64,000 nucleotides of DNA from NCBI GenBank assembly GCA_964610335.1, contig CAZSVP010000002.1, positions 14,376-78,375 on the forward strand, written 5' to 3'. The position numbers and the translations under genes were made by a program. A model generated the notes under the pieces. That model had not been told where the DNA came from and ran no database searches. It saw only the letters and a program-made list of their open reading frames with translations. Positions 6,379 through 40,333 of the stretch are shown piece after piece (within the stretch, counting starts at the first letter, position 1; each line of letters begins with the position of its first letter). Origin of the DNA: an uncultured Candidatus Saccharibacteria bacterium. GTDB lineage: Bacteria; Patescibacteriota; Saccharimonadia; CAILAD01; BJGX01.

Positions 6379-6381
6379 TGG

Positions 6382-7904: not shown

Positions 7905-7927
7905 TTGATTCTCCTAATTTGGTATGG

Positions 7928-9409: not shown

Positions 9410-9411
9410 CG

Positions 9412-10173
9412 TTATTTAGCAGCTTTCTTGTACTTACCCCACATCAACCCCCACTTGATCTTGATAATGTCAGGAAATGTTTGAATTGCAGCTTTGAGTG
9501 GTGAGTTGCCGAACTTGCTGCCCGTATCAATATTATGCCAATCTGGTACGTGAATAAGCTCTATGGGATATCCAAGCTGTCGTGCTATGGCAAGCACTTC
9601 CATATCAAATCCCCAGCTATCAATGGTCTGTCGTGAGAAAACCGCGCGCGCTACATCGCTCTCAAAAACTTTAAAACCACATTGAGTGTCAGGGATGCCA
9701 GGCAATATCAGCAACTGTACCACAAAGTTTCCAAAGCCAGAGATAAGCTTGCGGATTCCGCGGTGGCTTTTGTCTAAGTTACGAACACAAATACCAACTG
9801 GACGATTCTGTTGCATTAGTTGTTTTACTGAGTCCAGATACTTAAGCGGTGTTGCCAAATCAGCGTCCATAAACATTATGTAACGACCATGGCCCTGAAG
9901 CATGCCCATCTTGACTTGCTTACCCTTCATAAACTTTTTCTTTGGTCTAGGGCCCGCATCAACTACTTCAAAATGTGAGAACTTATGAGCTGACTGCTTG
10001 GCAACTTCTGCAGTATGGTCAGGACTATGTAGATCTACTATCATCACCTCTACCTCCAACGACAGAGTTTTTAAGTACTCTGATAATTTGTCCAAAGTGT
10101 CGCCAATTTGTTTGGCTTCGTTGTAGGTCGGAATAACGATTGTCAGATCGATTGATTTAGGTTTGGACGGCAT
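9412..10173 (-). CDS. GT2 polyprenol-phosphate glycosyltransferase (Ppm1/DPM1/ArnC-like)
   Basis: IVIPTYNE start of GT-A fold, DAD (DxD) motif; ATG at 10173 (track start 10191 is GTG); 17 nt overlap with upstream gene. Confidence 0.7.
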   Translation of the reverse strand: MPSKPKSIDLTIVIPTYNEAKQIGDTLDKLSEYLKTLSLEVEVMIVDLHSPDHTAEVAKQSAHKFSHFEVVDAGPRPKKKFMKGKQVKMGMLQGHGRYIMFMDADLATPLKYLDSVKQLMQQNRPVGICVRNLDKSHRGIRKLISGFGNFVVQLLILPGIPDTQCGFKVFESDVARAVFSRQTIDSWGFDMEVLAIARQLGYPIELIHVPDWHNIDTGSKFGNSPLKAAIQTFPDIIKIKWGLMWGKYKKAAK

Positions 10174-11713: not shown

Positions 11714-12224
11714 GAGTAAAAACAAATTTCTTATACATCAAGTAATTATACACAAGGACTACCGCAATCGCCGCAAATAGTGCAACATTTCGCTCGTCAA
11801 AATCACGGCTAAGTGGTAAATTTAGGCCGCTCGTGATCTGATAAGCAATTTGTGAAGGCCAAACCCAAACATCTGTTAATAGTTTTAGAATTATCGGTCT
11901 TATTACATATACTCCAAACATAGTGATTACAAAAAAGTAAACAATATGGCGAGTATCAACATGACGAGCTCTAAACGTAAACCTAGCATTGAATATATAG
12001 CTGTTTATCATAGCCAGTGTGCCTGAGATTATACCAGCAACCATCACTCCAGTTATTGTAATAACTGTTCCTGCTATAACAACTTGCCCCAACACTAAGC
12101 TCTTAGGGAGTATGGTAGCTGCCAGAACATTTAGTACAACAATATCAACAATAGTATTGAGCACACCTACAATACCAAATCGTCCGACTTGCAACGCTTC
12201 TGCCTGAGCCTTTGATTTTTTCAC
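11697..12224 (-). CDS. GtrA family membrane protein (polyprenol-P-sugar flippase-like)
   Basis: 175 aa, 4 TM, N-terminal GRFGIVGVLNTIVD GtrA signature. Confidence 0.65.
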   Translation of the reverse strand: MKKSKAQAEALQVGRFGIVGVLNTIVDIVVLNVLAATILPKSLVLGQVVIAGTVITITGVMVAGIISGTLAMINSYIFNARFTFRARHVDTRHIVYFFVITMFGVYVIRPIILKLLTDVWVWPSQIAYQITSGLNLPLSRDFDERNVALFAAIAVVLVYNYLMYKKFVFTHEEAK

Positions 12225-17916: not shown

Positions 17917-18343
17917 GCTCCTTTACTCCCAATCTAATTGTCATGCCTAGCTTGCTAAGCCAATCGTATTCACTCTGCCAGGTGTTGAGCTGATCAGTTG
18001 TAAGTATCATGATTAATCTATGTTCGCTCAGATCACGGGTGGTTTGTCTGGTTTGTAGTGTAAGCTGGTCCACCAACTCGATACTACCAGTCTGGTACTG
18101 GCATACGAAGTCGTAGAGCTGTTTGCGATCATTTTGCTCAAGTATACTTGGCTCTATAGTAATACGACGATGTACATCAAGCGTGTGCCAAAGTGATCCT
18201 ATCGAGCGAACTGTAGCAAAACGCTGGGTAGCTAGATAGCCAATAACTTCAAGGCGCTGGGCCTCAGTGCCACACACTATCAAACCTACCTCGGTACTAC
18301 CGCCCAAATATTCTACAAACTGGTCAACTTCTGGGATTTGCAT
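17903..18343 (-). CDS. Hypothetical protein (146 aa) between VWA and AAA genes, overlapping both
   Basis: ORF overlaps AAA gene start by 14 nt; no known motif. Confidence 0.45.
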   Translation of the reverse strand: MQIPEVDQFVEYLGGSTEVGLIVCGTEAQRLEVIGYLATQRFATVRSIGSLWHTLDVHRRITIEPSILEQNDRKQLYDFVCQYQTGSIELVDQLTLQTRQTTRDLSEHRLIMILTTDQLNTWQSEYDWLSKLGMTIRLGVKELAHG

Positions 18344-18365
18344 AAGAATTATTGCTCATTATACC

Positions 18366-22888: not shown

Positions 22889-24125
22889 AATACCATTGGA
22901 GTGACTTGGCTATTTCGCTTAGCTGGGACGAAGAATTATAGTTAGAGCTCAGCACGATATTGGCCACAGCGTTTCCAAGCTGTTTGGATTGGTCTGCATC
23001 TAGGCCTCGGCTAGTAAGTGCAGCTGTGCCAAGCCGCAAACCGCCTGGCCTCCAGGGTGATTTAGTATCCTCAGGTATAGCATTGCGGTTAGTAATAACA
23101 CCAAGTGATTCAAGTTTGTTTTGCACTTCCAGGCTGTCTACTTCATCTGGTAGTTTGACGAGTGTAAGATGGGTTTCGGTTGACGACACTATGTCTAACC
23201 CACCCTCTACTAAGCCTTGTTCCAGTGCCCGACAGTTGGCTATTACTTGTTTTGAGTATTCTTGAAAAGATCGATTGTCGGGGTAAGTATCTTCACCCAA
23301 CACTTCTAGCAAGGCTTGGCCTGTAGCCGCGATTTGATTGAGATGTGGCCCACCCGAGGTACCTGGAAATACAGTTTGATTGAGCGACTTGAGATACTCT
23401 TGTTTGGCAAATACCATAGCAGCTCGCGGACCTCGCAAAGTTTTGTGGGTTGTAGTGGTAACAAAGTCTGCTCCTTGGGCGTGAGATTTAAAAGGACTGT
23501 CGTGTAACCCAGCTGCAATTAACCCCGCTATGTGAGCAATATCAGCCAGTACCAAGCAGCCATAGCTGTGAGCGATCTCACATAGTTTGGCAAATTCATA
23601 CTTGCGCGGATAAGCTGAAAAGCCAATTACTACCAAACGCGGCTGAGTAGTTTTTACCTTATCTTCAAAATCATCGTAGCCAATTTCATAGCCATTTGGC
23701 CCAGCTGCTACTGAGTAAGTATCGTGTTTGAAGAACTTCAAGTAACTACTAGTGGCATGCAAATGGCTCAAGTGCCCACCGCTACTCAGCTCTAGGCTTA
23801 ACACTGTGTCACCGGGCTCTAAGACCGTGAAGTACACCATGGCATTGGCCGGACTACCAGAAAGCACTTGCACATTGACGCCATACTCAGCCGTCTTATC
23901 AAATACTTCCAAAGCTTTTTGTTGCACAAACTCTTCGAGCTCATCGGTATGTACATTGCCAGCATAGTAGCGCTTGCCCGGGTAGCCCTCGGCATACTTG
24001 GTACTCCAAACCGAGCCAAGCAGACCGAGCACCTGTGGGCTAGGATAGTTTTCGGAAGCAATGAGATTGAGGCTGTCGCGCTGCCGAGCGAATTCTTTGG
24101 CAGTAAGATCTTCAATGAAATTCAT
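22875..24125 (-). CDS. glyA: Serine hydroxymethyltransferase
   Basis: PLP-Lys motif TTTTHKTLRGPR, 416 aa. Confidence 0.92.
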   Translation of the reverse strand: MNFIEDLTAKEFARQRDSLNLIASENYPSPQVLGLLGSVWSTKYAEGYPGKRYYAGNVHTDELEEFVQQKALEVFDKTAEYGVNVQVLSGSPANAMVYFTVLEPGDTVLSLELSSGGHLSHLHATSSYLKFFKHDTYSVAAGPNGYEIGYDDFEDKVKTTQPRLVVIGFSAYPRKYEFAKLCEIAHSYGCLVLADIAHIAGLIAAGLHDSPFKSHAQGADFVTTTTHKTLRGPRAAMVFAKQEYLKSLNQTVFPGTSGGPHLNQIAATGQALLEVLGEDTYPDNRSFQEYSKQVIANCRALEQGLVEGGLDIVSSTETHLTLVKLPDEVDSLEVQNKLESLGVITNRNAIPEDTKSPWRPGGLRLGTAALTSRGLDADQSKQLGNAVANIVLSSNYNSSSQLSEIAKSLQWYYDRA

Positions 24126-24150
24126 ATGGATAATTATACATCATAACGAG

Positions 24151-24186
24151 AGTGAGCCCGAGGGATGGTAGTCCCTCGGGCTCACT
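24151..24186 (-). terminator. 15 bp perfect GC-rich stem-loop AGTGAGCCCGAGGGA-TGGTAG-TCCCTCGGGCTCACT downstream of thyX
   Basis: Seen directly; weak U-run so could be stabiliser/processing hairpin rather than terminator. Confidence 0.4.
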
Positions 24187-24294
24187 TGAGACAGGCTGCG
24201 GCGAAAAGCCTATCTCGGGTCACACCCTCGAGTACTAGGACCCGAGGATGTGTCTGAGGTGGTCTGACAGGGCGAAGGCCAGTACACCTCAGGA

Positions 24295-26094
24295 TCAGGC
24301 CGTCAGTTCCGCCAACTTGGCCAACTTCTCGGCCGTGGCGGTCTCGCTGGCCATGCGTGTCAGCTCGCCGAGCGTGTCCTGCTGGTTCACGAAGCACATC
24401 GCCTTGGCACTGATCGGATAGACACTCTGCACCTCATCGAACATGAGGTTGCACAGCTTGCGGTAGCCAGGATGGCCTTGCGGTCCGGTGCGCAATTCCA
24501 GCAAGTGGAACAGCTCACGCAGACTGGTGATGAACCGGTAGCGCATGCGATAGCCCATGCACAAGGCGTACTGAGCCTCGTGCTTGTGACCGCCGCCGAA
24601 CATGTCGTTGTACAGCTCACTGGACAACTCGAAGGCTCGACGGTAGTTGGCCTCTTGCCCGGCCTCCGCCACCAACTCCGGTACCTCGTAGCCGAGATAC
24701 GGCGTGAGCGCCGGCCACTCCCACGCACTCACCATGCGATGTCGCTGCAGGTCGCGGAAGGTGCCGTAGTCGCCAACCAGCTCCCAGTCGAAGGTGGCCT
24801 CCTCGGCAGCTCGCCCCGGCCGATGGCGCCGGTTGAGGCGCTGGCCGAAGTAGAGCTGCATGAGCTGACGCTGCTTCTTGCGCGGCAGCTTGGCGACCAA
24901 CTTGCGCAGCTTGGTCATGGAGCGACCATCCACGGCGTAGAGCATGCCAGCGCACAGCTCGCGTTCGTCGCGCGGCTGGTAGTTCAGCAATGTCACCGCC
25001 GCTTCGCCCTTCTTGCTCGACTTGTCTGGCGGCAGCTCACGGAGAGCGAACTCACGCAGGCCAGCGCGGGTCTCGGCCAAGTAGTTGACGGTCATGAGCC
25101 CACGGTCCGGCTTGTCGGTCCGCTCCAGGAACTCTGGGATCACCTTGCGAGCCTCACGCAACAGCGCGGCACCCATGGCCCGGGCCTCGGGCAGCTCACG
25201 CGACAACAGCCGCATGATCAGCGCATCGAGTGCCTGAGCCGACATGGTGATGCCCACAGTCGAACGGGTTCCGACTGGCAGGATGGCGCGGGCGGCATCG
25301 CAGGCCTGAGCTCGCACCGCTCCCGGCCAGCCAGCATGCTTGGCCGGCTCCGTCGTCTTGTCCGGCCGCGGGTTGGTGAGCTTGACGTGCTCGGTGACCT
25401 CGCGCACTACCGTGGAGTAGAGATCGAAAATCTCGTCCATGGTGGACTCGTAGTACTTGAGCATGTCGGGGTCGAGCCCCGGCCGCAGGTACTTGTAGCG
25501 ACCATCAGTCTTGGTGTCGAAGTAGATGTAACGGGTGGACTGCTCGAGATACGCCGCAGCCACCCGACCCCACTCCAACTCCTTGGTCATGAGATTGCTC
25601 ACACCTTCGCAGACGAACATCACTGTGATGAGCTGCTGCACCGAATCGTCACCGAACTCGGTAACCACACGATTGATCAGCGCCGCCGCCTCTTCGGTTC
25701 GCATGCGCCCGGCGGTGAGGTCGGTGATGGCCTGGCGAAGCGTCTTCAACGCCTGTTCACACATCGGCGTGGCATCGAAGTCACCGTCGAAGAAGTTCTC
25801 CAGCGAACGAACAGCAGAAAGCAGCTCATGCTTGCGCAGTTTGGTGAGCACGGCAGCGTCCTGCACGCCAGCGAACTCCTCGAGGATGGTGACACGCAGA
25901 TCACCATCGCGTCGGCTGAGCCGAGCCATGGCAGCGGCCACCACCACGATGTTGGCCTGAGCGGTGAAGAAGTAGACCGGCCCAGTCGGATCGGTCACGA
26001 TCTCGCTCAGGTAGCGGATGCCGCGCTTTGTCGGCACCTTCTGTCCCTTGTAGATCCGGATGTACGGGTTTCTCTCTTGCAGTTTGGCGGGCAT
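24295..26094 (-). CDS. thyX: Flavin-dependent thymidylate synthase ThyX-like (Thy1 family), long ~600 aa form
   Basis: FVCEGVSNLMTKELEWGRVAAAYLEQSTRYI aligns to ThyX FxxEGVSRxxTHELVRHRxASYxxQSQRY core; second RHR (LQRHRMVS) later; ~63% GC. Confidence 0.6.
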   Translation of the reverse strand: MPAKLQERNPYIRIYKGQKVPTKRGIRYLSEIVTDPTGPVYFFTAQANIVVVAAAMARLSRRDGDLRVTILEEFAGVQDAAVLTKLRKHELLSAVRSLENFFDGDFDATPMCEQALKTLRQAITDLTAGRMRTEEAAALINRVVTEFGDDSVQQLITVMFVCEGVSNLMTKELEWGRVAAAYLEQSTRYIYFDTKTDGRYKYLRPGLDPDMLKYYESTMDEIFDLYSTVVREVTEHVKLTNPRPDKTTEPAKHAGWPGAVRAQACDAARAILPVGTRSTVGITMSAQALDALIMRLLSRELPEARAMGAALLREARKVIPEFLERTDKPDRGLMTVNYLAETRAGLREFALRELPPDKSSKKGEAAVTLLNYQPRDERELCAGMLYAVDGRSMTKLRKLVAKLPRKKQRQLMQLYFGQRLNRRHRPGRAAEEATFDWELVGDYGTFRDLQRHRMVSAWEWPALTPYLGYEVPELVAEAGQEANYRRAFELSSELYNDMFGGGHKHEAQYALCMGYRMRYRFITSLRELFHLLELRTGPQGHPGYRKLCNLMFDEVQSVYPISAKAMCFVNQQDTLGELTRMASETATAEKLAKLAELTA

Positions 26095-26117
26095 GCACCT
26101 CTCCTTTTGTTTTTGCC

Positions 26118-26387
26118 CTATTGGGGGCGCGGTTGGTCTCGATACACCGCATCGATTGCGGCATCGACTTCTGTTTGCACCTGCTCAAAGGCTGGTCGGA
26201 GCAAGTGATCGATCAGTTTCTCGCGAAACGTGGCCATATCACCTTCCTCCAACACTACCTCGACCTCAGGCTTGTGATGCGGGTGGCCGGTGTCGCGTGT
26301 AAGCATGCGTGTAGCACGCCGATACGCTTGCCACTTGCCACTCGCTTGGTCGTAACGGATATTCAGATCCAGAATAGGCGCACTCAC
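26118..26387 (-). CDS. Hypothetical protein (89 aa) between tmk and thyX
   Basis: High-GC ORF, same strand, fills gap in operon. Confidence 0.35.
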   Translation of the reverse strand: MSAPILDLNIRYDQASGKWQAYRRATRMLTRDTGHPHHKPEVEVVLEEGDMATFREKLIDHLLRPAFEQVQTEVDAAIDAVYRDQPRPQ

Positions 26388-26398
26388 GCTGCCCCCTT

Positions 26399-27034
26399 TC
26401 AGGCAAGCAAAGGCTCAATATGAGCCAAGATGGATCGTTCGACTTCTTCCACACTGCCGCGACCATCGATGAACACGAATTGGCCAGGCAACCCCTTGGT
26501 AGCCTCGACACGGAAGCCCTCGACGAGTCTAGTATGGAATTCTTCTTTCTCCTGCTCGAAACGGTCGAGCTCGCCGCCTCGTGCGCTGACACGAGCCATC
26601 GAATCAGCAAGGTCGACATCCAGCACAAAGATGCGATGAGGGAACAACTCGTTTACCACCAAGCTGCAGACTGAGCGCACATAGTCGGCGCCGAGCCCAC
26701 GGGCATGGCCTTGGTAGACACAGTTGCTGACATAGCTGCGATCGGAGACCACTGGTCGTCCTGATTGCAGCGCTGGCAACACCACCTCGTGCAGATGCTG
26801 AACGCGATCGGCATTGAACAACAGCACTTCGGCCATGGGCTCGAGTTCGCCGGTAGCTGGATCGAGCAAGATCTGTCGAACCATACCGCCAAGCGGTGTG
26901 CCACCTGGCTCACGAGTCAGCACAGCGCCAATTCGATCGGCGAGGAGTCGGGCTTGCGTGGACTTGCCACAACCCTCGACACCCTCGAATGCAATGTAGA
27001 GCGGTTGGGGCACAGCCCTCACCTCCTTTGTCAA
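26399..27034 (-). CDS. tmk: Thymidylate kinase
   Basis: LYIAFEGVEGCGKSTQ P-loop, DRY-like motif; ~63% GC. Confidence 0.85.
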   Translation of the reverse strand: MTKEVRAVPQPLYIAFEGVEGCGKSTQARLLADRIGAVLTREPGGTPLGGMVRQILLDPATGELEPMAEVLLFNADRVQHLHEVVLPALQSGRPVVSDRSYVSNCVYQGHARGLGADYVRSVCSLVVNELFPHRIFVLDVDLADSMARVSARGGELDRFEQEKEEFHTRLVEGFRVEATKGLPGQFVFIDGRGSVEEVERSILAHIEPLLA

Positions 27035-27118: not shown

Positions 27119-27928
27119 CTAGAATATCTGTCGTTTGTCGCGCGACATTTTCTTGCGCAAGCTTGTATTGCCACTCGAGTACATACGAGGCAACATGCCA
27201 ACTGGACTCCAGGCTTTTTGTAGCTTGCGAATATCTACACCCGGTTGGTAATGACCGGTGGTACCATAATCGATAGTAGTGGCGGCCACCCAGAAGAATA
27301 TCATCTGCGCGATCGGCATACCCACCACAAGAGGAACCCAGACGTTGGTATTTTTGTTGCGAATCTCCATGGTCCAACGATTGATGTAGCCCACATCGCC
27401 CCAACCAGCGTCGTCGCAAGAGCTAATGTTGATGCGCCCCAGGCTACTGCGAGCTTTCATCATGGTGGTGATGCCATAGCTACCTCCTATGTACTCAAGT
27501 GTATGAGCCAGAATACATTCGCCTGGTGCCAGCACTATAATATATTCGTCCTTGTCGATGCCTGCAAATGATTGTCGACTATGTTGTTTGCACCATGTTT
27601 CATGAGTGACGGCCTTATGGGGGCCTGAATAATACAAATCTACCTCTTCTTTGCTATATGGCGAAAAGTCTACACGATGCCCGACTTGCTCAGCCATATA
27701 ATAGTTACCACCCAATCGCACATCGTAGCTGCTAGAGTTGAGAAGCTCGGGCTCAAATGGATCTATTACAACTTGTCCACTATTGAGACAAGCTGTAAGC
27801 TCAGCATCTCCAAGCACGCCAGAAAATGGTCTGTTGGATTTACGCTGATAAACTTCAACATCAGCTAGATCGAAATCTACAGCTGTTGTGCGTCCTTTTA
27901 ACCACTCTTCTGGACTTTGTTGTTTCAC
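27119..27928 (-). CDS. dcd: dCTP deaminase family protein (dUTPase fold), long form
   Basis: LNSSSYDVRLG motif; 269 aa; backbone-like GC. Confidence 0.65.
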   Translation of the reverse strand: MKQQSPEEWLKGRTTAVDFDLADVEVYQRKSNRPFSGVLGDAELTACLNSGQVVIDPFEPELLNSSSYDVRLGGNYYMAEQVGHRVDFSPYSKEEVDLYYSGPHKAVTHETWCKQHSRQSFAGIDKDEYIIVLAPGECILAHTLEYIGGSYGITTMMKARSSLGRINISSCDDAGWGDVGYINRWTMEIRNKNTNVWVPLVVGMPIAQMIFFWVAATTIDYGTTGHYQPGVDIRKLQKAWSPVGMLPRMYSSGNTSLRKKMSRDKRQIF

Positions 27929-30338: not shown

Positions 30339-31484
30339 CTACTTGTTTTTGGTGTTATTGTCAAATGGTTTGACCTGTTTGGCCGACGGAATTTCTAGGT
30401 TGGATTGTTCGACTAGCTTTTTGAGACGAATGGATTGGCTGTGAGCATAATCAAATGCTTTCGGAAGAGCTACTTGTACTATTATTCCTACCAACACGCA
30501 AGCTAGCAAGAAACTATCAATACCAAGAATTAACAGTGCTGTTGACGGATATCGGCGCAACTTAGTAAAACTTTCCAAACCAGGCAGCCAATACTTATGT
30601 TTTTGTAAGTGATCAAAGCTCAAAACAGCTATAGACAAGCAAATACCCATCACTAATCCAAGTACTTGCCAACCGCTAGAAAGACCCGATAATAGCAAAA
30701 GCGTTTCAAAACTAACAATAAAAACCAATATTGCTAGTGTAATAGTAGCAGGTAACAGCCTGTTGGCTATTTGGGACAGGGTGCTCAGTGGACTAGTGGC
30801 TGGGATTATTGGTACAAGTAAGAGTTTGCCTACTTTGGCACTGCGAGCAAAGCGCAAAACATTTCGATTACGACAAGCCCAGCACCACAATATACCAATA
30901 ATCGTAATAGCCCAAAGACAAATTACAACAAATACAGCTAGCACTGGCAAGAAGCTATACAGCTTGTTGATTACCAATGTGGAAAGACCAGTGGCTATAA
31001 TCAAAGCTAATGCCATCAACAACACAAAGTAAGTGGTGCCTACGATCAAGCCACCTACTAACTGCCAATATGGTGGACGATTGGCACTCGATAACTTGAG
31101 CAACCACGGTTCTAACAACCAACCTATTAAGACAAATATTCCTGTACTTGCAGCAATAAATCTTAGGTTGTTGAGGTTGCTAGAAGAGAACCAGTTGGAT
31201 ACAGTTTGAGCAAGTTCGTAGCTATTGAGCTGCATTGTTTTTACTACTATCAGCAAAATAATTGGGGTAGACAGAACTATTAGGAATCTAAGAGAAAAAA
31301 GCATGCGTAGAATTACAACTACTACAACAGGCGTTGATATAACAATAGAATGTTTTGCAGGGGTTTTTGAATGCGGCTTTTTCTTTTTTACAGCTGGCGG
31401 ACTCTTGGAGATTTTACGTGCTCCCTGCTCGGTAATATCATAAGAAATACCGTCAATAGTCATACGAGTTGGTTTGTTTGCCAT
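30339..31484 (-). CDS. Hypothetical polytopic membrane protein
   Basis: 381 aa, multiple TM helices, Lys-rich N-terminus. Confidence 0.5.
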   Translation of the reverse strand: MANKPTRMTIDGISYDITEQGARKISKSPPAVKKKKPHSKTPAKHSIVISTPVVVVVILRMLFSLRFLIVLSTPIILLIVVKTMQLNSYELAQTVSNWFSSSNLNNLRFIAASTGIFVLIGWLLEPWLLKLSSANRPPYWQLVGGLIVGTTYFVLLMALALIIATGLSTLVINKLYSFLPVLAVFVVICLWAITIIGILWCWACRNRNVLRFARSAKVGKLLLVPIIPATSPLSTLSQIANRLLPATITLAILVFIVSFETLLLLSGLSSGWQVLGLVMGICLSIAVLSFDHLQKHKYWLPGLESFTKLRRYPSTALLILGIDSFLLACVLVGIIVQVALPKAFDYAHSQSIRLKKLVEQSNLEIPSAKQVKPFDNNTKNK

Positions 31485-31496: not shown

Positions 31497-32345
31497 TCAC
31501 CTTCCGAATAGTTTTGCTAGATGACAGCCAAGCAATATCCAGGCTTTTTCAGGCCCGCTCAAACTCACCCTAGACTTGGAAATTTGCTGCGGTGTTAACT
31601 GAGCCAGTTTGGCTAGTAATCTCATATAGGCACGCATGGCCAAAAGAACACCGTAACGAACACTTTTGGGTAGTTGATCTACCCCGAGCCTAGCCTGCTC
31701 AAAATCTACCTCAATCTCGTTGATTATTGCCATATAACCACCTTGGCTAAGATCTGTAAAATCTATGTTTGGGAAATATTGTCGAGACAATTCTTGCTGA
31801 TCACTACCAAGATCACGCAAGAAATTCACTTTTTGAAACGCTGCGCCTAATGCCTCAGCTGCTGATATAAGCTTCTGGTATTGGCTAGCTTTGCCGTCAC
31901 AGAAAACCGACAAGCACATCAAACCAACTGCCTGGGCTGAGCCATATATATAGTTGTCATATTCTGCTTTTGAGTAACTATGCTTTGAAATATCCATCCG
32001 CATACTGGCAAAAAAAGCCTCAATTGGCTCAATTTCAAGGTTGTACTTACGTGCAGTTGTCGAAAAGGCATGGACTATCAAGTTCTCGCTATATCCCGAC
32101 TTTATAGATTGCAGCGTCTCGGCTTCTAAGGTAGCAAGCCGTTTGGTCATCTTATCTGGCCGCCAACTATCAACCAGCTCATCGGCAATACGAACTAACC
32201 CATAGATGTTATATATATGGTTTCGGTATGGTTGATCTATCAATGTCGTAGCCCGGTAAAAAGAGCTCGAGAATTGACGAGTCACTAGCTCCGCTGCTGC
32301 GAAGCTCGTGTCAGTATATAACTGTTGGTTATAGCGAGTTTGCAT
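31497..32345 (-). CDS. crtB: Phytoene synthase
   Basis: YIYGSAQAVGLM and FQKVNFLRDLGSD squalene/phytoene synthase signatures. Confidence 0.8.
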   Translation of the reverse strand: MQTRYNQQLYTDTSFAAAELVTRQFSSSFYRATTLIDQPYRNHIYNIYGLVRIADELVDSWRPDKMTKRLATLEAETLQSIKSGYSENLIVHAFSTTARKYNLEIEPIEAFFASMRMDISKHSYSKAEYDNYIYGSAQAVGLMCLSVFCDGKASQYQKLISAAEALGAAFQKVNFLRDLGSDQQELSRQYFPNIDFTDLSQGGYMAIINEIEVDFEQARLGVDQLPKSVRYGVLLAMRAYMRLLAKLAQLTPQQISKSRVSLSGPEKAWILLGCHLAKLFGR

Positions 32346-33403
32346 TAGTGATCTCTTCGTACACAGCGACTAGCAAACTCTTGTAGCAATGCCTCGTATT
32401 GTGCAGATACTTCTAATTCCTGGATTTCATAAAGTGTTTTCTGATACATATTATCTGCCAAAGCCTGTACTTGCCTCTTCGCACCGGTGTCATCAAACAG
32501 TTGACGGATCTTTTGCAAGTCTGCAAAACTTGCTTCTGTATTACCCCAATACTTCTGTAGTATTTGTTTTTGTTTTAAGTTGGCATTCTTTAAAGCAAAG
32601 TACACTAAGAATGTTTTCTTACCTTCCTGCATATCTGAAATATTAGGTTTCCCAAGTTTTTTACTGTCACCATATACGCCCAGAATATCATCAGAGAGTT
32701 GGAATCCAGTACCCAGTAGATAGCCTAATCTTTCCAATTTTTCTAGTTGATCATATTTCTTGGCCAAAATGTGCCCAAACTGCAACGGCAATATGAACGA
32801 ATAATAGGCCGTCTTATATGATGCAATCTTCTCGAGCGTAGTCTTTGTTATATGATCTTCTACCGAGGCTAAGATGTCATATTGTTGGCCTATCGCAGTG
32901 ATGGTACTTTTGGTACTCACCAAATTAACTAGACGCATGGCCGTGGCACTATCAACCTTCAGATTACTTATCTGCTCATATACTAGCGCATGCGCAATGT
33001 CGCCAGCGTTAATAGCAGCGCTCAAAGCCACATGATCCCTCTGTTTTTCGGGTAGCTTGTCGAGCCGCTTGCGAAAACGTGCCTCTATAGTTGGTCCACC
33101 ATGCCGTACAAAATCACTATCCTCGATATCGTCATGTATCAGCATAAAGGAGTGTAATAGCTCCAATACAATACTGGATTGAGCTACAATTTGTTGACCA
33201 CGACCACCATACATTTGAAAGCTCATACTCATTAAGAGTGGACGTAATCGCTTACCACCACTCATGGTGTATTTCTCTATATCACTAAAGACAGTTTTGG
33301 TAATTCTATCATTAGCATAAATTCCTTTTGTCCTTGCGAAGTAGCTCACTAGCGATGCATCGATTCTTTTTTTGTTAGCTACAATATAATTGTCTAGGCT
33401 CAT
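32345..33403 (-). CDS. crtE: Polyprenyl (geranylgeranyl) diphosphate synthase
   Basis: LIHDDIEDSD and FQLSDDILGVYGD (two DDxxD). Confidence 0.8.
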   Translation of the reverse strand: MSLDNYIVANKKRIDASLVSYFARTKGIYANDRITKTVFSDIEKYTMSGGKRLRPLLMSMSFQMYGGRGQQIVAQSSIVLELLHSFMLIHDDIEDSDFVRHGGPTIEARFRKRLDKLPEKQRDHVALSAAINAGDIAHALVYEQISNLKVDSATAMRLVNLVSTKSTITAIGQQYDILASVEDHITKTTLEKIASYKTAYYSFILPLQFGHILAKKYDQLEKLERLGYLLGTGFQLSDDILGVYGDSKKLGKPNISDMQEGKKTFLVYFALKNANLKQKQILQKYWGNTEASFADLQKIRQLFDDTGAKRQVQALADNMYQKTLYEIQELEVSAQYEALLQEFASRCVRRDH

Positions 33404-34887
33404 GGTTGTTCCTCAAGTATTCTCTCCACGACCAATTTGGCACTCAATGTAACCATCGGTATACCCCCTCCTGGGTAAGTGCTAGCACCTACAAAGTACA
33501 AGCCCGCTACATCACGGCTTTTGTTGGATGGCCGAAAGTATCCAGACTGAAATAGATTGTGGCTCAAACCAAAAGCGGATCCCTGATGGAGGTTAAATGT
33601 AGATGCAAAATCATTTGGCCCAAAGATTCTTTCTGATCTGATAGAATTCTTTAGTGACACTCCAAATTCTTTCTCAAACCGTTTTAATACCTTGGCCTTA
33701 ATACCTGGGGCTGCTTCTTGCCAATCTATATTGGCCTCTAAGTTTGGCACCGGCACCAACACGTACATCACATGTCTGCCCTTGGGCGCCAGAGTCGGGT
33801 CTGTTTTGGTCGGTACGTAAACATAAAAACTGGGGTCTGTTGGCAGCTTGCCTTCTTTGAAAATCTGCTCGAGATTTTGCTTGAATTGTTTGCTAAGTAT
33901 CACGTTGTGATGGAGCAATCCATCAAGCTCAGCATCTAATCCCCAATAAAACAACAGCGCGGAGCTGGCTTGTTTGTATCCAGTAAGCTTTTGTTCTGGC
34001 ATACTAGGTCTGTGCTTCGCATCTACTAAATCTAGATACGTATACACCAAATCAGAATTGGCCAATACCATATCAAATTGTTTCGCATTTCCAGGCTTAA
34101 GTGTAATCCCCTGAGCAACTCCGTTTTCGATGTTTATCTTTTCTACCTGTGAGTTAAGATGAATTTTGACACCCATATCAATGCATAGTTTTTTGAGTGC
34201 TTGGCTCAACTTATACATTCCGCCTTTGGGATACCATATGCCCAAGCCAGTCTCCATATAACTAACAGTCGAATATATGGCCGGCGCATCATAGGGACTT
34301 ACTCCCAAATACATACTCTGAAAGCTAAATAATTGGCGTAAGCGTTCGTCACGAAAGTAGTGACCTGTAAAATTATATAGGCTACTTAAGCCACGTTTGG
34401 TGAGTAGCTGCACACCATGCTTTGGACTCAAGAAGTCAGTTGGCTTGTCAAAGTTCTTATCTATGTAGTGTTTCCTGGCAAGTCGATAGAACTCAGCTAC
34501 TCTACCGAAATAGTGATAGAACTGTTCTGGCGCTTTAGAATCAAATTTGGCCAGTTGGTTGCAAAACCTAGGCAAGTTACTGCTAACTTCGATGCGACTA
34601 TGATCACCAAAAACTACTTGATAGTTCGGCTCAAGCTGAATTAGCTCAATGTAATCATCGAAGTTTTTACCACAATACTTAAATGTGTCGTACAGGACAT
34701 CAGTCATCATAAGTAGCGTTGGGCCCATATCAAAGCTAAATCCGTCCTGGCTGAATTTGTATGCTCTACCACCCACTTGTGGGTTCTGTTCGTAGACGTC
34801 TACACTATAACCATGTTTTGCGAGTCTTGCAGCTGCACACATCCCACCTATCCCAGCCCCAATTATTGCAACTGACTTCTGTTTCAT
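33400..34887 (-). CDS. crtI: Phytoene desaturase
   Basis: VAIIGAGIGGMCAAARL FAD dinucleotide fold, 495 aa. Confidence 0.85.
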   Translation of the reverse strand: MKQKSVAIIGAGIGGMCAAARLAKHGYSVDVYEQNPQVGGRAYKFSQDGFSFDMGPTLLMMTDVLYDTFKYCGKNFDDYIELIQLEPNYQVVFGDHSRIEVSSNLPRFCNQLAKFDSKAPEQFYHYFGRVAEFYRLARKHYIDKNFDKPTDFLSPKHGVQLLTKRGLSSLYNFTGHYFRDERLRQLFSFQSMYLGVSPYDAPAIYSTVSYMETGLGIWYPKGGMYKLSQALKKLCIDMGVKIHLNSQVEKINIENGVAQGITLKPGNAKQFDMVLANSDLVYTYLDLVDAKHRPSMPEQKLTGYKQASSALLFYWGLDAELDGLLHHNVILSKQFKQNLEQIFKEGKLPTDPSFYVYVPTKTDPTLAPKGRHVMYVLVPVPNLEANIDWQEAAPGIKAKVLKRFEKEFGVSLKNSIRSERIFGPNDFASTFNLHQGSAFGLSHNLFQSGYFRPSNKSRDVAGLYFVGASTYPGGGIPMVTLSAKLVVERILEEQP

Positions 34888-34926
34888 ATTGCACTAATCA
34901 TATCAGATCGTTTAGTGTAGGGGTAG

Positions 34927-35247
34927 ATGAAGATTACTAACCTGATATATATTACTACTCTGGGTACAAGCTTAGTGTGCCTAGTACTAATTGATAAACG
35001 TTGGCGGCTAGCTATGTTTTACGATGCCAAAGCTAGCTTGTTTGCTATTGGAACTGTGGCACTACTACTACTAGGATTTGATGTTGCTGGAATTAGTTGG
35101 GGAATATTCTTCACAAATCAAGCTTACGTGAGCGGAATACACTTATTCTCAAAAAACTTACCTGTTGAAGAGATATTGCTGCTAGCCTTGATATGCTACA
35201 CCACACTTGTACTATATCAGTCGTTCAAGAGAGTATGGCATGAGTAA
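34927..35247 (+). CDS. Lycopene cyclase domain protein (heterodimeric cyclase subunit, CrtYc/CrtYe-like)
   Basis: 106 aa, 3 TM, LPVEEILL (PxEE) motif. Confidence 0.6.
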   Translation: MKITNLIYITTLGTSLVCLVLIDKRWRLAMFYDAKASLFAIGTVALLLLGFDVAGISWGIFFTNQAYVSGIHLFSKNLPVEEILLLALICYTTLVLYQSFKRVWHE

Positions 35248-35578
35248 ATACACTATTCTTTTCGTATTTGAGATCATACTAGTATTAATAGTTCTACTGT
35301 TCTCAAGGCGCCAGCTCAGGTTTAAACCAATACTGCTGACATTAGTTTGTTTGACTATTATTACTTGCATATTTGATAGCTGGCTCACAGCTTGGCCAAT
35401 CGTGCAGTATAATAGTGTAGCGATCAGTGGTATTCGTCTGGGAACTATCCCATTCGAAGATTTTGGCTATACGATACTGGCAGGTATATTGATACCAATC
35501 GTATTTGAGATTATCCATGGACATCAAAAAAACCATCCAAGCAATTCGAGAAATAATCCAGACCAGCCGTCCGGTTAG
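35240..35578 (+). CDS. Lycopene cyclase domain protein (second subunit, CrtYd/CrtYf-like)
   Basis: ~110 aa, 3 TM, IPFEDFGY (PxED) motif; 3' end overlaps next gene across an A7 run. Confidence 0.55.
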   Translation: MSKYTILFVFEIILVLIVLLFSRRQLRFKPILLTLVCLTIITCIFDSWLTAWPIVQYNSVAISGIRLGTIPFEDFGYTILAGILIPIVFEIIHGHQKNHPSNSRNNPDQPSG

Positions 35579-37535
35579 TTGGGTCAATACCGCAGCACCG
35601 TTTGCTGCAGGGTACTTAATAGTAGCTGGCCAAATGGGTCCAAGCTTTTGGATTGGGTTGATATACTTCTTGTTCCCATACAACTTACTGATGTACGGTG
35701 TGAACGACATTTACGACTATGAAAGCGATCTCAAAAACCCGCGTAAAAATTCAATAGAAGGCGCATTACTTAATAAGAGCCGCCATAAAATGATTTGGTA
35801 CGCAATAGCCGCGGCCAACATACCCTTTATAATTGCTATGCTAATTTTGGCTCCTACAATCGCAGCCAAGTTATTCTTCTTGTTATTAGTGGGGTTTTGT
35901 TTTAGCTACAGTATGCCTCCAATGAGATTCAAAGAAATACCGGTAGTAGACTCAGTAAACTCTAGTTTGCATTTTGTTAGCCCGCTCCTATTTGGGCTGT
36001 TATTGGCCGGAGCCGCAAATATTGTGCCCTACTTGATGGCCCTGGGAGCATTCCTATTGTGGGGTATGGCATCACAAGCTCTAGGTGCTATACAAGATAT
36101 CAAACCCGACCGAGCAGCTGGTATTGCTTCAATTGCCACCGTACTGGGAGCACGCAGAACCAATCGGTTTGTGATGGTGTTATATACACTGTCCGCGGTT
36201 TTGGTAGCTGTAGGTTATTTTCCCGTTGGTATTGTGGGAGCAGCATTGCTAAGTTTGTATGTGCTTAATGCTAGTTTTTTTGTCAAATACATATCCGATG
36301 CCCGCAGTGGACAGTTTCATCGAGCATGGCAAAATTTCATATGGCTAAACCAGCTCGTTGGATTTGGACTAACCTTGTTACTACTCTGGTCATATAATGT
36401 TCTGGGCTTTCAAACAAACTGGCTAATGCTACTTAGCTATGGATTAATTGGGCTCAGCATAATCGGGCTGTTGACTATGGCAAGCAACACTTGGCTAATG
36501 CGTGTTAAACGCCAACAGTCCCATCCCCACCACTGGCCAAGAGTGAGTATTTTGCTTAGCTGTTACAACCAGTCAGCCACTATCACCTCAACTCTCTTAG
36601 CTGCTCTGGGACAAGATTACCCTGACTACGAGCTTTTGGTGTCAGACTTGGGTTCAACTGATGCAACTGCTTCTCGTTTGCAAGCCCAGCAAGACAAACG
36701 ATTACGTGTAATTGATCTAGATACCATGCCACCTGGCTGGCAAATACAAAACTGGGCCCTAGAGCAACTGCGTCTAAAAGCGCACGGCGAAATACTAGTG
36801 ATATTACACCAAGATGTTTTACTTTATCCAGCAGCACTGTCTACTTTGGTTGCACAACTTAGTACAAACAGTGTTGACTTTGTAAGTGTCCAAGTTGGTG
36901 ATCCTACCAAGCAGTTGAACCACCAATTAAGTCTTGCTCAGACATGCGCCCTGCAACTTGGTTGGTACCCAGAGTTAATACGCAAACTCTTGCGTCGAGA
37001 CGTTAATATCTGGCTTGGCCAGATTACAGTATGCCAAGCGGGGCAACTTGATAAAATACATGGTTTTAAGAATTTCAAAGCCAGCCCTATTGGCAATTTA
37101 GAAATACAGCGTGCAGCAACAAAACGAGGATTAAAATCAATACAAATACTTGGGAACAATATATCCAGTAGCCATTTTCACCAGGAAGTTATCGCCAGCA
37201 CTCAATACCTAAGTCAGCAAGCATATCCTCAGTATTACCAGTCCCTACCATTAGTGGTATTAATATGCTTCATTATATTGGTAGTTGGGCTATTGCCAAT
37301 ATTGCTGTTTGCATGGCAATTTATAGTGCTCGGTGGTATGGAAGCATGGCTTCTATTGGGAGCGGTCAGCATATACTACCTACAAAGACTAATTAGTGCC
37401 ATTACACTTAAACAGCATCTTATTGGCGTGGCACTGTTCCCAATTGCCGACTTAATCGTTGTATGGTGCATTGTACGTTCTATGTTGGAGACAGAGTTCT
37501 CCACACCTCGATGGCATAACTCACTGAACAGATAA
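35517..37535 (+). CDS. Fusion protein: UbiA-family prenyltransferase (lycopene elongase CrtEb/Lye-like) + GT2 glycosyltransferase (CrtX-like) with flanking TM segments
   Basis: N-terminal NDIYDYESD (NDxxDxxxD) in 8-9 TM UbiA fold; C-terminal VSILLSCYNQ...DLGSTDAT GT-A fold; 672 aa. Confidence 0.65.
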   Translation: MDIKKTIQAIREIIQTSRPVSWVNTAAPFAAGYLIVAGQMGPSFWIGLIYFLFPYNLLMYGVNDIYDYESDLKNPRKNSIEGALLNKSRHKMIWYAIAAANIPFIIAMLILAPTIAAKLFFLLLVGFCFSYSMPPMRFKEIPVVDSVNSSLHFVSPLLFGLLLAGAANIVPYLMALGAFLLWGMASQALGAIQDIKPDRAAGIASIATVLGARRTNRFVMVLYTLSAVLVAVGYFPVGIVGAALLSLYVLNASFFVKYISDARSGQFHRAWQNFIWLNQLVGFGLTLLLLWSYNVLGFQTNWLMLLSYGLIGLSIIGLLTMASNTWLMRVKRQQSHPHHWPRVSILLSCYNQSATITSTLLAALGQDYPDYELLVSDLGSTDATASRLQAQQDKRLRVIDLDTMPPGWQIQNWALEQLRLKAHGEILVILHQDVLLYPAALSTLVAQLSTNSVDFVSVQVGDPTKQLNHQLSLAQTCALQLGWYPELIRKLLRRDVNIWLGQITVCQAGQLDKIHGFKNFKASPIGNLEIQRAATKRGLKSIQILGNNISSSHFHQEVIASTQYLSQQAYPQYYQSLPLVVLICFIILVVGLLPILLFAWQFIVLGGMEAWLLLGAVSIYYLQRLISAITLKQHLIGVALFPIADLIVVWCIVRSMLETEFSTPRWHNSLNR

Positions 37536-38479: not shown

Positions 38480-39244
38480 CTACTGCAAAAAGCTACCGAC
38501 TGTACTAACTAACTGTTGCTTAGCCTGCTCCATCGATTCACTAAACTGTGTAAAAGCCCCTATGATCTGCAGCTTACTTTCTTCATGCGACAGTCTTATA
38601 CTCTTGGCAGCATTAGCCAATAGCCCGCGATCCGCTAATGCTGTTTGCTGAGCAAAATCTATCGCCCTGGTTAAATCTTGTCGTGACGCCGCAGCATTAT
38701 TACCATCAGCGCAGTCAGACTTAGCTTGCTCAAGTGCATTATTGACTTGATCAACAAATTGCTGGCGATTGGCTTTACGAGAATCTTGCACAGATTTGAG
38801 CTCACTATCAACCTGGCTTCGATAGTTACGAACTGCATTATCTACTGCTAAATGTCTTACATCGAGAGCTTGTTTAACCGCTGCTGAATACTGTTCCACC
38901 GCCTGGCTCTGGGCCTCTGATTTGGCGCGTGCCAGCATGGCCTCAACGTGTCGCCTCCGGTCTTCTTCAGCTTTACTGCGCAAGCCAGCAAGTTTTTTAT
39001 CAAACGCTGCACGGCGCTTGGCTAGCTGTTCATCATGGTCGAACTTTACAGGAGAAACTGACTTATAGTACTCGTTTGTTTTTTCTAGTAGCCGACTGGT
39101 TATATTGTCTACTCTCTGACAAAACTGAGGTGTTGGTTCAGCCGAAAGTGGGCTATCTTCAGCCTGTGATACGCCAACCATACCAAAGATTGCAGTTACC
39201 GCAAACAAGATTGCAATAAATCTTATACTACTGCGCCACAGCAT
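38480..39244 (-). CDS. Secreted alpha-helical/coiled-coil protein
   Basis: Signal peptide ...GVSQA-ED, Ala/Gln-rich helical repeats. Confidence 0.45.
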   Translation of the reverse strand: MLWRSSIRFIAILFAVTAIFGMVGVSQAEDSPLSAEPTPQFCQRVDNITSRLLEKTNEYYKSVSPVKFDHDEQLAKRRAAFDKKLAGLRSKAEEDRRRHVEAMLARAKSEAQSQAVEQYSAAVKQALDVRHLAVDNAVRNYRSQVDSELKSVQDSRKANRQQFVDQVNNALEQAKSDCADGNNAAASRQDLTRAIDFAQQTALADRGLLANAAKSIRLSHEESKLQIIGAFTQFSESMEQAKQQLVSTVGSFLQ

Positions 39245-39773
39245 TATATATATCTCCTAAGCTAGTTTGATATTGACTAGCCAGATTAATTTGATTGTCC
39301 AGTAAACTGGTCGGCTGCTCATCCAACGTTGCCTGAGCTTGCTCAGCTTGGGTATTGGCATTAATTTGCGAAACCGTATTGGTAATGGTACCATTTGCCA
39401 CCACAGTAGCTGAGGTAGTTTGATCATTGGCAGGCCGCATTTGTAAAACTAGAACACTACCAAAAACCATCACAAATACAGCTACTCCACCAAAGGCTAG
39501 CGACCATGGTTGTAGCCTTGACCAGTTATGGGAGCTACCATTAATAATTTTTTCTGATTGCTGTTTCTGATTATTCAACTGGTTTAGCACTGCTTGCAAC
39601 TGTGTCTTACTAGCTTCACTAGTAGTTGCGATAGCTTCCATCTGCTCAATCACAGTAGTATCGGCGCTTAAATCAGCCGCAAATTTTGGGTAGCGTTTTA
39701 CTATCGCTCGACGATTTGCCTTTGTCGAACCGATGTATTCTTCTAGTACCAAATCATAATTCGGATTTTTCAT
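39228..39773 (-). CDS. Putative anti-sigma factor (single-pass membrane protein)
   Basis: Overlaps ECF sigma gene stop; one central TM helix. Confidence 0.45.
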   Translation of the reverse strand: MKNPNYDLVLEEYIGSTKANRRAIVKRYPKFAADLSADTTVIEQMEAIATTSEASKTQLQAVLNQLNNQKQQSEKIINGSSHNWSRLQPWSLAFGGVAVFVMVFGSVLVLQMRPANDQTTSATVVANGTITNTVSQINANTQAEQAQATLDEQPTSLLDNQINLASQYQTSLGDIYNAVAQ

Positions 39774-40333
39774 GACCTTTCCTCATCTTTTATTAGTAGA
39801 CGTAGCTTTGCAATCGCCCTTGATTGTAGTTTTCGCGTGGCAACTGGAGTTTTACCAATTATCTCAGCAATTTGCTCAGAGCTCAGCCCTACAAAGAACC
39901 TCAATCGCAACACTTCCTGGTCAAGTTCACTAAGTTTGTGGAGTTGGTTCAACAAATGCTGCTTTTGTTCGTTTATTAAAACGTCCTGGTGTTGATCTTG
40001 TGACGTATCAGCGATTGCAAGTAACACATCTTCAGAATCTCCTATAGGTCGATTACTCGTAGCACGATAGTAATCAATAACTACACTTGATGCAATCTTA
40101 TACAAATATGCTGTCGGGCTATAACCACGATCTTGCCACCTTGATAGATTCTTGTAAAACTTCAAAAACGATTGCTGGGTAAGATCTTCAGCATCTTCCG
40201 TTGTTCTAACCTTGGCTGCGATATAACGGAAAAGTGGCTGATACAATTGCTCGTACAGTTCGTCAAAAGCAGTTTGATCACCGTCTTGTGCACGTGTTAC
40301 CAGCTCGATGAGCGATTGTTTGTTGTGTTGCAT
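39770..40333 (-). CDS. ECF RNA polymerase sigma-70 factor
   Basis: Region 2 (LYEQLYQPLFRYI) and region 4 HTH (LSSEQIAEIIGKTPVATRKLQSRA). Confidence 0.85.
   Translation of the reverse strand: MQHNKQSLIELVTRAQDGDQTAFDELYEQLYQPLFRYIAAKVRTTEDAEDLTQQSFLKFYKNLSRWQDRGYSPTAYLYKIASSVVIDYYRATSNRPIGDSEDVLLAIADTSQDQHQDVLINEQKQHLLNQLHKLSELDQEVLRLRFFVGLSSEQIAEIIGKTPVATRKLQSRAIAKLRLLIKDEERS

Follow-up and report, generated by a model that had tools for sequence, protein, structure and literature searches.

A predicted cyclic C50 carotenoid gene cluster in Saccharibacteria, with a lycopene elongase-type protein fused to a GT2-derived membrane module

Background

The closest described systems to the gene cluster considered here are the C50 carotenoid clusters of Corynebacterium glutamicum (crtE-crtB-crtI-crtYe-crtYf-crtEb, for decaprenoxanthin) and Micrococcus luteus (crtE2-crtYg-crtYh, for sarcinaxanthin) (PMC6393565). 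A third is the C.p.450 pathway of Dietzia sp. CQ4, in which the protein LbtBC is a fusion of an N-terminal cyclase subunit and an elongase (PMC6393565, PMC6669644). We analysed a stretch of 64,000 nt from an uncultured Candidatus Saccharibacteria bacterium (assembly GCA_964610335.1, contig CAZSVP010000002.1, positions 14,376 to 78,375 of the forward strand), referred to below as the window. At positions 31497-37535 it carries the same set of enzymes as the C. glutamicum and M. luteus clusters, and its elongase is joined in one reading frame to a membrane module derived from family 2 glycosyltransferases (GT2).

The elongase of the window shares 44-48% identity with those of the two clusters, each cyclase subunit has its own counterpart there, and the translational coupling is alike. 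Unlike them, the window has crtBEI and cycAB-elongase as two divergent units, and its elongase continues into a C-terminal module in which a GT2 domain lies between transmembrane (TM) segments. Its host also differs, being a member of the candidate phyla radiation (CPR), and no pathway to C5 units is seen in the window. LbtBC, whose elongase part is 44% identical, differs from the window protein in that the latter has the GT2 part at its C-terminus and both cyclase subunits as separate genes.

In our opinion, the cluster is best read as a chromosomal, vertically inherited pair of operons for a cyclic C50 carotenoid, in which the fused GT2-derived half would modify the C50 product. We give this reading, made from sequence, a probability of roughly 0.7.

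C50 genes as such are not new to these bacteria. A study of 2023 found homologues of lyeJ, crtD and cruF in Baikal Patescibacteria, a Saccharibacteria metagenome-assembled genome (MAG) among them, and read them as a bacterioruberin pathway; neither cyclase subunits nor the fusion are mentioned there (PMC9948471). The first-pass annotation of this DNA had called a full pigment pathway unexpected in an otherwise minimal genome. The gene set is indeed there, but in view of that study the presence of C50 genes in the group had already been reported. The annotation also stated that it was aware of no described case of an elongase joined to a glycosyltransferase. Our literature search, which covered mostly journals open without subscription, returned no paper describing such a fusion; nevertheless, fusions within this pathway do have precedents, both in LbtBC, which makes fusion a recurrent theme in the C50 pathway, and in the UbiA::GT2 and cyclase::UbiA::GT2 proteins discussed below.

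Genes of the cluster

Six open reading frames (ORFs) make up the cluster, and in Pfam and NCBIfam profile searches each of them matches the family proposed for it at first reading. All coordinates are positions in the whole window; L086 and L087 are two MAG contigs with the same gene order.

31497-32345, minus strand: crtB, phytoene synthase, 282 residues (PF00494 SQS_PSY, 4e-42; 46% identity to the syntenic gene of L086)
32345-33403, minus strand: crtE-like short-chain prenyl-diphosphate synthase, 352 residues (PF00348 polyprenyl_synt, 3e-53)
33400-34887, minus strand: crtI, phytoene desaturase, 495 residues (TIGR02734 crtI_fam, 493 bits, cut-off 238)
34888-34926, no strand: divergent intergenic gap of 39 bp between crtI and cycA, read from the sequence
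34927-35247, plus strand: cycA, cyclase subunit of the CrtYe/CrtYg/LbtA type, 106 residues (TIGR03462, 40.5 bits, cut-off 39.4)
35240 (ATG) to 35578, plus strand: cycB, cyclase subunit of the CrtYf/CrtYh/LbtB type, 112 residues (PF18916, 2e-13; TIGR03462, 48.1 bits, cut-off 39.4)
35517 (ATG) to 37535, plus strand: UbiA::GT2 fusion, 672 residues (UbiA, residues 31-279, 4e-23; NF009608, 344 bits; Glycos_transf_2, residues 348-469, 4e-12)
35517-36401, plus strand: fusion residues 1-295, predicted lycopene elongase of UbiA fold, nine TM helices (NF009608; helices of the AlphaFold2 (AF2) model)
36402-36521, plus strand: fusion residues 296-335, tenth TM helix and linker (AF2 helix 298-327; alignment with stand-alone GT2 proteins)
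36522-37232, plus strand: fusion residues 336-572, GT-A (GT2) domain with a remodelled active site (PF00535, 4e-12; PF13641, 1e-8)
37233-37535, plus strand: fusion residues 573-672 and stop, three C-terminal TM helices and PRW tail (AF2 helices 577-604, 609-630, 641-662)

Reference DNA of characterised elongases and cyclases was taken from the supplement of PMC6393565. In BLASTP, the first 290 residues of the fusion (the UbiA half) share 47.5% identity with C. glutamicum CrtEb, 44.7% with C. efficiens CrtEb and 43.9% with both Dietzia LbtC and M. luteus CrtE2, each over about 280 residues and with E-values from 9e-87 to 5e-61. The NCBIfam model NF009608 ('PRK13105 prenyltransferase') gives the fusion 344 bits, above its cut-off of 217 (CrtEb obtains 490, CrtE2 449 and LbtBC 418 bits), and two sister prenyltransferase models remain under theirs (NF009516, 149 bits for a cut-off of 205; NF010119, 155 for 248). 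Other UbiA-superfamily models that match the fusion, namely the geranylgeranylglycerol-phosphate transferase models and ubiA_other, reach at most 48 bits, and at E<0.01 the NCBIfam scan gave no match to a model for MenA, CyoE or 4-hydroxybenzoate prenyltransferase. Both Asp-rich motifs are intact in the window protein (N63, D64, D67 and D71 of NDxxDxxxD; D194 and D198 of DxxxD). They are kept in 56-57 of the 58 members of the Saccharibacteria fusion family, and both belong to the 86 columns that are invariant when the window protein is aligned with three reference elongases. A prenyltransferase of the MenA, UbiA or CyoE type is ruled out by the NF009608 pass together with the absence of matches to the models for those enzymes. 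Thus the initial view of this half as elongase-type was well founded, and by its sequence we place it in the lycopene elongase family.

Adjoining the elongase are two small lycopene-cyclase-domain proteins, one for each known subunit class, and both pass TIGR03462, so their early recognition as cyclase subunits stands. CycA is 36% identical to C. glutamicum CrtYe (BLASTP, E 4e-16) and pairs with CrtYe, CrtYg and LbtA; CycB pairs with CrtYh, LbtB and CrtYf, at E-values from 5e-8 to 3e-7. The score of CycA with PF18916 is under threshold (19 bits for 27). The TIGR03462/PF18916 family covers heterodimeric cyclases of both C40 and C50 carotenoids, which counts in favour of a C40 enzyme of the CrtYc/CrtYd type; our assignment of the pair as a C50 cyclase rests on its operon context.

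That context is tight. The genes cycA and cycB overlap by 8 nt, ATGAGTAA, and the fusion starts 62 nt inside cycB, whose call at 112 residues is identical in the contigs L003 and L005. On the minus strand, crtB and crtE overlap by 1 nt and crtE and crtI by 4 nt, in agreement with the first description of these three genes as contiguous with overlapping ends. Overlapping starts and stops are also found in characterised C50 operons (PMC6393565). Only 39 bp separate the two divergent units, and their promoters, if any, must lie largely within the flanking genes.

The motifs on which the genes had first been recognised are all found in the translations (YIYGSAQAVGLM, FQKVNFLRDLGSD, GAGIGG, LPVEEIL, IPFEDF, NDIYDYESD, ILLSCYNQ and DLGSTDAT), but the description of crtE as having two DDxxD motifs needs correction. 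Its single strict DDxxD is the first, DDIED, whereas the second motif reads DDILGVYGD. In the NCBIfam and motif check of crtB and crtE, crtE obtains 154 bits with GGPP_syn, which is under the equivalog cut-off. The first aspartate-rich motif (FARM), DDIED, has a Phe at -5, which we take as a sign of a type-I geranylgeranyl diphosphate (GGPP) synthase. The crtE-like protein is probably a GGPP synthase, its chain length being judged from gene context and the FARM motif. The crtI product is 61-64% identical to those of the syntenic genes of L086 and L087.

Reality and inheritance of the fusion

An assembly artefact or a frameshift is ruled out as the source of the 672-residue ORF, since the identical product is called on nine contigs, from at least four samples (among them three SRA runs and one JGI metagenome). 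The ORF is intact in every assembly examined, and the AF2 model of the protein is continuous and confident (pLDDT 89.2, pTM 0.87). The single-ORF check thus leaves the fusion as genuine as it had been claimed to be. The fusion is also common: the UbiA+GT2 architecture occurs in 92 of the best 120 clusters at 90% identity, at 35-57% identity to the window protein, and fusion clusters with NCBI names are called 'prenyltransferase' of Candidatus Saccharibacteria, Saccharimonadales or 'bacterium'.

The gene order rplA-rplK-nusG-secE-hypothetical-crtB-crtE-crtI, divergent from cycA-cycB-fusion, is conserved in L086 and L087. Their fusion proteins are 45% (L086) and 40% (L087) identical to that of the window; among the three loci the carotenoid proteins are 32-64% identical, and L11 and NusG 69-89%. 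Since the same order is kept in such distant Saccharibacteria, the cluster seems to be old and vertically inherited. The comparison points to inheritance from the common ancestor of the three lineages and not to a recent acquisition. The nearest named relatives of the RpoA of the window are from Ca. Saccharibacteria or Patescibacteria (74-77% identity), and the remainder of the window consists of ordinary CPR housekeeping genes.

A different arrangement is seen in another MAG labelled Ca. Saccharibacteria (L090, GCA_002742895.1, positions 4342-9146), namely an actinobacterial-style crtE-crtB-crtI-cycA-cycB::UbiA operon without a glycosyltransferase (GT). The cycB::UbiA fusion in it is of the LbtBC type. 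In our tree the UbiA half of this fusion lies on the side of Actinobacteria, and the operon may have been acquired separately, as a second event, or may be a contaminant from binning.

Related fusions exist outside Saccharibacteria. Twelve proteins of 683-742 residues (most of 737-742) consist of a cyclase subunit, UbiA and GT2, and one protein of 711 residues (P0092) consists of UbiA and GT2, with two separate cyclase genes upstream and a gene neighbourhood unlike that of CPR genomes. They share with the window fusion the architecture of an elongase with a membrane GT2 and the setting among carotenoid genes. The two triple-fusion contigs for which DNA is at hand (L088 and L089) have 68% GC, are not CPR-like, and encode crtI, crtB, a pair of MerR and B12-binding regulators and MMPL; one of them also encodes TetR. 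MMPL transporters are also part of the crt locus of C. glutamicum. The MerR-family regulator and the B12-binding protein flank the triple-fusion clusters (L088, 9893-11232; L089, 8815-10154), and such a gene pair is typical of light-induced carotenogenesis.

Unlike the Saccharibacteria fusions, the triple fusions and P0092 keep all canonical GT-A motifs (RNE, DDGSTD, GK, DAD and ED). In the trees their GT halves fall with stand-alone GT2 proteins and their UbiA halves on the actinobacterial side, whereas the Saccharibacteria fusions form a clade of their own in both the UbiA-half and the GT-half tree. These trees are neighbour-joining trees, midpoint-rooted and without an outgroup, and indicate groupings and not the direction of transfer; hence one fusion event and two are both compatible with them. 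In any case, fusions with canonical GT motifs outside Saccharibacteria lend independent support to a pairing of elongase and GT2. The nearest relatives without a fused GT are LbtBC-like proteins of about 390 residues.

Origin and structure of the GT2 half

The C-terminal half aligns end to end with stand-alone TM-GT2-TM proteins of about 385 residues, at 22-28% identity. The sources annotate these as chlorobactene glucosyltransferase (CruC) or HpnB. The alignment takes in the N-terminal TM helix, the GT-A domain, the C-terminal TM bundle and the W-x-x-R tail, which reads PRW in the window fusion and WKGR in the stand-alone relatives. The TM-GT-A-TM architecture and the alignability over full length of the CruC/CruG/HpnB type are therefore both found in the GT half. 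CrtQ, too, is a membrane GT2 of the CruC/HpnB type. On the other hand, although the membrane GT2 proteins CruC, CruG, HpnB and HpnI are its best stand-alone matches, the GT half departs from them in its low identity, in its substituted donor- and metal-binding residues and in missing the NCBIfam cut-offs widely (CruG 47.5 bits for 600, HpnB 58.9 for 379, HpnI 29 for 310). We consider it, from these alignments, a divergent offshoot of membrane GT2 proteins of the CruC/CruG/HpnB type.

A k-mer-prefiltered search with the GT half missed even the fusions themselves, and an exhaustive HMMER search was used instead. Among 1.84 billion representatives it returned nine proteins at E<=1e-30, every one of them the C-terminal half of a protein of 494-683 residues; below these nine the scores fall from 138 to 104 bits, and the matches are mostly generic stand-alone GT2 proteins. 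Hence, among these representatives, the Saccharibacteria type of GT occurs only fused.

The AF2 model has nine UbiA helices, a tenth helix (residues 298-327), a GT-A domain (residues 343-560) and three further TM helices. With Foldseek, the GT half is matched by GT2 structures at E of about 1e-7 (PcManGT 6yv7, WrtF, BcsA and SpsA) and also by hyaluronan synthase. By alignment, the tenth helix corresponds to the N-terminal TM helix of the stand-alone CruC/HpnB-like proteins, which makes the join easy to picture. In the general topology of UbiA proteins both Asp-rich loops are cytoplasmic, and a UbiA protein of nine TM helices should end outside the cell. The GT2 part would then re-enter with its own N-terminal helix, so that a simple end-to-end join would bring both sites to the cytoplasmic leaflet. 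Judging from this general topology, we expect the GT-A domain and both Asp-rich loops to face the cytoplasm.

Proposed pathway and points against it

We propose the following pathway. CrtE would supply GGPP, two molecules of which CrtB would condense to phytoene, and CrtI would desaturate phytoene to lycopene. The UbiA half would add one C5 unit, from dimethylallyl diphosphate (DMAPP), at each end of lycopene, to give an acyclic C50 diol resembling flavuxanthin; the CycA/CycB heterodimer would cyclise both ends, to give a carotenoid resembling decaprenoxanthin, sarcinaxanthin or C.p.450. The GT2-derived half would modify the terminal hydroxyls of the C50 product, most simply by glycosylating them. 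The fusion, together with the translationally coupled subunits, could keep elongation, cyclisation and tailoring together in a single complex of the membrane.

A number of points weigh against this proposal. The identity of the product is deduced from homology only, and the ring type cannot be read from the sequence. Further, cyclisation must precede a CrtX-like glycosylation, so the fusion joins steps that are not consecutive. For this reason the fusion is better seen as nucleating a complex than as a direct channel, and the first-pass suggestion that it would channel the C50 carotenoid straight to glycosylation is unlikely in that form, as the cyclase step intervenes.

The supply of C5 units is the next difficulty. 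We scanned the window ORFs of at least 150 residues, minus a few spurious or unscanned ones, and the small ORFs of the cluster, with Pfam runs on the flanks at E<=1e-5. Among these proteins there is no idi gene and no gene of the methylerythritol phosphate (MEP) or mevalonate pathway. The ORF at 26399-27034, a candidate position for Idi, encodes dTMP kinase. Freshwater Saccharimonadia have likewise been reported with the C10-C20 isoprenoid step only (PMC9166423), and the two observations together leave the C5 supply unexplained.

The GT half also fails to resemble the glycosyltransferase encoded beside the Micrococcus C50 cluster. Its best local alignment with a Micrococcus CrtX-type GT2 is not significant (E 0.25), the comparator being a gene of M. 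lacusdianchii at about L006:10230-10993 that is the positional equivalent of CrtX and not a characterised protein. In that organism the gene after crtYh encodes a short soluble GT2 (PF00535, 5e-22), unrelated to the GT half of the window. When 80 elongase loci of Actinobacteria (each with 8 kb on either side) were searched by tblastn, no relative of the GT half turned up either. These two results rule out an orthologue of the Micrococcus-type CrtX, or a fused actinobacterial neighbour, as the origin of this half.

Finally, the active site is remodelled. We compared the motifs of 58 Saccharibacteria fusions with those of stand-alone relatives and of 13 fusions from outside Saccharibacteria, as follows.

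Canonical RNE: YNQ in Saccharibacteria; YNQ in the window
Canonical DDGSTD: xDLGSxD in Saccharibacteria; SDLGSTD in the window
Canonical GWxGK: no Lys in Saccharibacteria; no Lys in the window
Canonical DAD (the DxD motif): S/A/G-x-D in Saccharibacteria, the first Asp never present; HQD in the window
Canonical ED: E in 48/58 and D in 43/58 Saccharibacteria (E in 10 more); GN in the window

In none of the 58 fusions is the first DxD position Asp, and the 'DD', 'GK' and 'NE' positions are replaced as well. The window protein has gone further: its ADQNK motif, like DxD and ED, is altered (GDPTK), and in the GT domain it shares only 32% identity with the other family members, for a family mean of 52%. 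Given these replacements, glycosyl transfer is a reasonable expectation for the architecture in general, a weaker one for Saccharibacteria, and uncertain for the window protein; on the sequence at hand we find the arguments for and against a glycosyltransferase activity of the latter evenly balanced. Thus, of the glycosylated product announced by the first-pass annotation, the GT2 fold is borne out by Foldseek and AF2, while glycosylation itself is not secured, given the lack of significant similarity to a CrtX-type GT2 and the replaced GT-A residues.

Alternative explanations

Of the alternatives, the one that survives best accepts the cyclic C50 carotenoid but holds that in Saccharibacteria, and above all in the window lineage, the GT half is no longer a nucleotide-sugar glycosyltransferase. 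It would have become a membrane scaffold without catalysis or a carotenoid-binding module, stabilising the complex of elongase and cyclase, or else an enzyme whose donor or chemistry has changed. The family-wide replacements just described (RNE to YNQ, DD to DL, loss of GK, DAD to S/A/G-x-D) suit it, the more so as the triple fusions and the stand-alone relatives keep all of these residues. So does the appearance of new invariant residues in the Saccharibacteria family, D462 (within ADQNK), W408 and S523, and the finding of this GT type only in fused form. In the window the ED acid pair is gone too, and the divergence is confined to one half, the UbiA half standing at its family mean of 55% identity.

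Nevertheless, a GT-A fold is predicted with high confidence, and every member of the family keeps D433, the metal-binding third residue of DxD. An acidic residue is present at position 529 in 57 of the 58 members, that of the window included. GT-A enzymes with a degenerate DxD do exist. Moreover, in lineages other than that of the window, the GT half is as strongly constrained as the elongase half, with mean pairwise identities within the Saccharibacteria family of 52% and 55%, respectively, and the ORF has stayed intact throughout. Sister strains differ in the whole fusion gene by 4-5 synonymous and 5 non-synonymous codons, which is too few for a ratio of the two rates for the GT half. On balance we regard the loss of glycosyltransferase function as unlikely, but as deserving serious attention.

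In a bolder proposal, the GT2-derived module of Saccharibacteria, specific to the lineage, always fused and with a rebuilt active site, would act with the elongase and the cyclase as one machine in the membrane. The product would be a C50 derivative not seen before, which could bear a new sugar or a different head group, or could be a carotenoid bound by a pseudo-enzyme. As these epibionts seem to be without an isopentenyl diphosphate (IPP) pathway of their own, the C5 units would be obtained from the actinobacterial host. If true, an ultra-small episymbiont would draw on its host to make this pigment, as a membrane lipid or a photoprotective one. We offer this as speculation, and in our opinion it is a little more doubtful than the loss of function in the GT half.

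An acyclic C50 pathway of the bacterioruberin type, as proposed for the Baikal genomes with their lyeJ, crtD and cruF homologues (PMC9948471), we consider improbable for the window. Its UbiA half passes NF009608 and fails NF009516 and NF010119. That one or the other of the latter two represents Lye is our assumption. CrtI-family proteins do score on CrtD models as well, but the cluster has one CrtI-family gene only, and the general family searches gave no CruF-type match among the scanned window proteins. Besides, translational coupling links the elongase to two cyclase-domain subunits, an arrangement shared with the operons for cyclic C50 carotenoids. The suggestion that CycA/CycB are a C40 beta-cyclase of the CrtYc/CrtYd type, with beta-carotene as the main product and UbiA::GT2 acting on another lipid, could possibly provide retinal for the rhodopsins of Saccharibacteria, which have no known source of it (PMC9296517), but it is scarcely credible, since the cyclase genes are co-oriented with, and overlap, an elongase 44-48% identical to proven lycopene elongases, the scanned window proteins include no rhodopsin or blh-like gene, and the study of Jaffe et al. 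found the rhodopsin-bearing Saccharibacteria that it covered to be without blh (PMC9296517).

Implications

By the current view, CPR bacteria synthesise hardly any of their lipids themselves. Against this background a syntenic cluster of six genes would be a rare dedicated membrane-lipid pathway in the group, and it raises the question of the source of ten C5 units for each pigment molecule. The window cluster looks like one for a cyclic C50 carotenoid and is at variance with the bacterioruberin reading given earlier to C50 genes of Patescibacteria. The physical joining of a C50 elongase to a membrane module of GT2 type speaks for the two being linked in function. A comparison of the canonical GT domains of the triple fusions with the remodelled ones of Saccharibacteria is a way to learn what the module does.

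Other features of the window

Between secE and crtB, at 30339-31484 on the minus strand, lies a gene for a polytopic hypothetical membrane protein of 381 residues, which has no Pfam or NCBIfam match. L086 and L087 have a hypothetical protein of 450-453 residues in the same slot, without significant BLASTP similarity to that of the window. The proteins share only a short N-terminal resemblance, 'T(I/V)DGI(S/R)Y(D/N)I' ('TxDGIxYxI'), and position alone is conserved. The protein in this slot may serve the pigment cluster as a rapidly evolving accessory, or it may have nothing to do with the cluster.

Downstream of the cluster, at 38480-40333 on the minus strand, are genes for an extracytoplasmic function (ECF) sigma factor (39770-40333), an anti-sigma-like protein (39228-39773) and a coiled-coil-like protein of 254 residues (38480-39244). 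L086 has the same trio close to its cluster. In some bacteria, carotenogenesis is under the control of an ECF sigma factor and its anti-sigma partner.

At about 27006, between tmk (26399-27034) and dcd (27119-27928), the sister contigs L002 and L003 carry a NUDIX gene of 168 residues (L002:987-1493) that is not in the window, so that the strains differ here by an indel of about 0.5 kb. An IPP isomerase is ruled out for this gene; a Lysinibacter control did score as Idi. Close by, at about 24000-26000, is an island of 61.6% GC in a genome of 42-49% GC. It holds an ORF of 599 residues resembling ThyX (24295-26094, minus strand; TIGR02170, 76 bits, in two matched stretches), and a long ORF is open on the opposite strand too. 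The edge of the island, at about 26027-27007, is 85-90% identical to L002/L003, while its flanks are 96-99% identical; the island may be a foreign or fast-evolving insert.

At 7928-12224 on the minus strand, two glycosyltransferases of the PMT_2 family accompany a DPMS-like GT2 (9412-10191) and a GtrA-like protein. By its composition this is a predicted module for polyprenyl-phosphate-sugar glycosylation, which would make it a further consumer of polyprenyl lipid without a visible C5 pathway. At 15886-20456 on the minus strand, an AAA_5 (MoxR/dynein-like) ATPase of 676 residues adjoins a VWA/CobT_C protein of 696 residues. Lastly, ribosomal protein L1 (28035-29045, minus strand) has an N-terminal extension of about 100 residues rich in Lys, Ala and Glu; from its TTG start it is 336 residues long, and it is called at 328 residues in L002.

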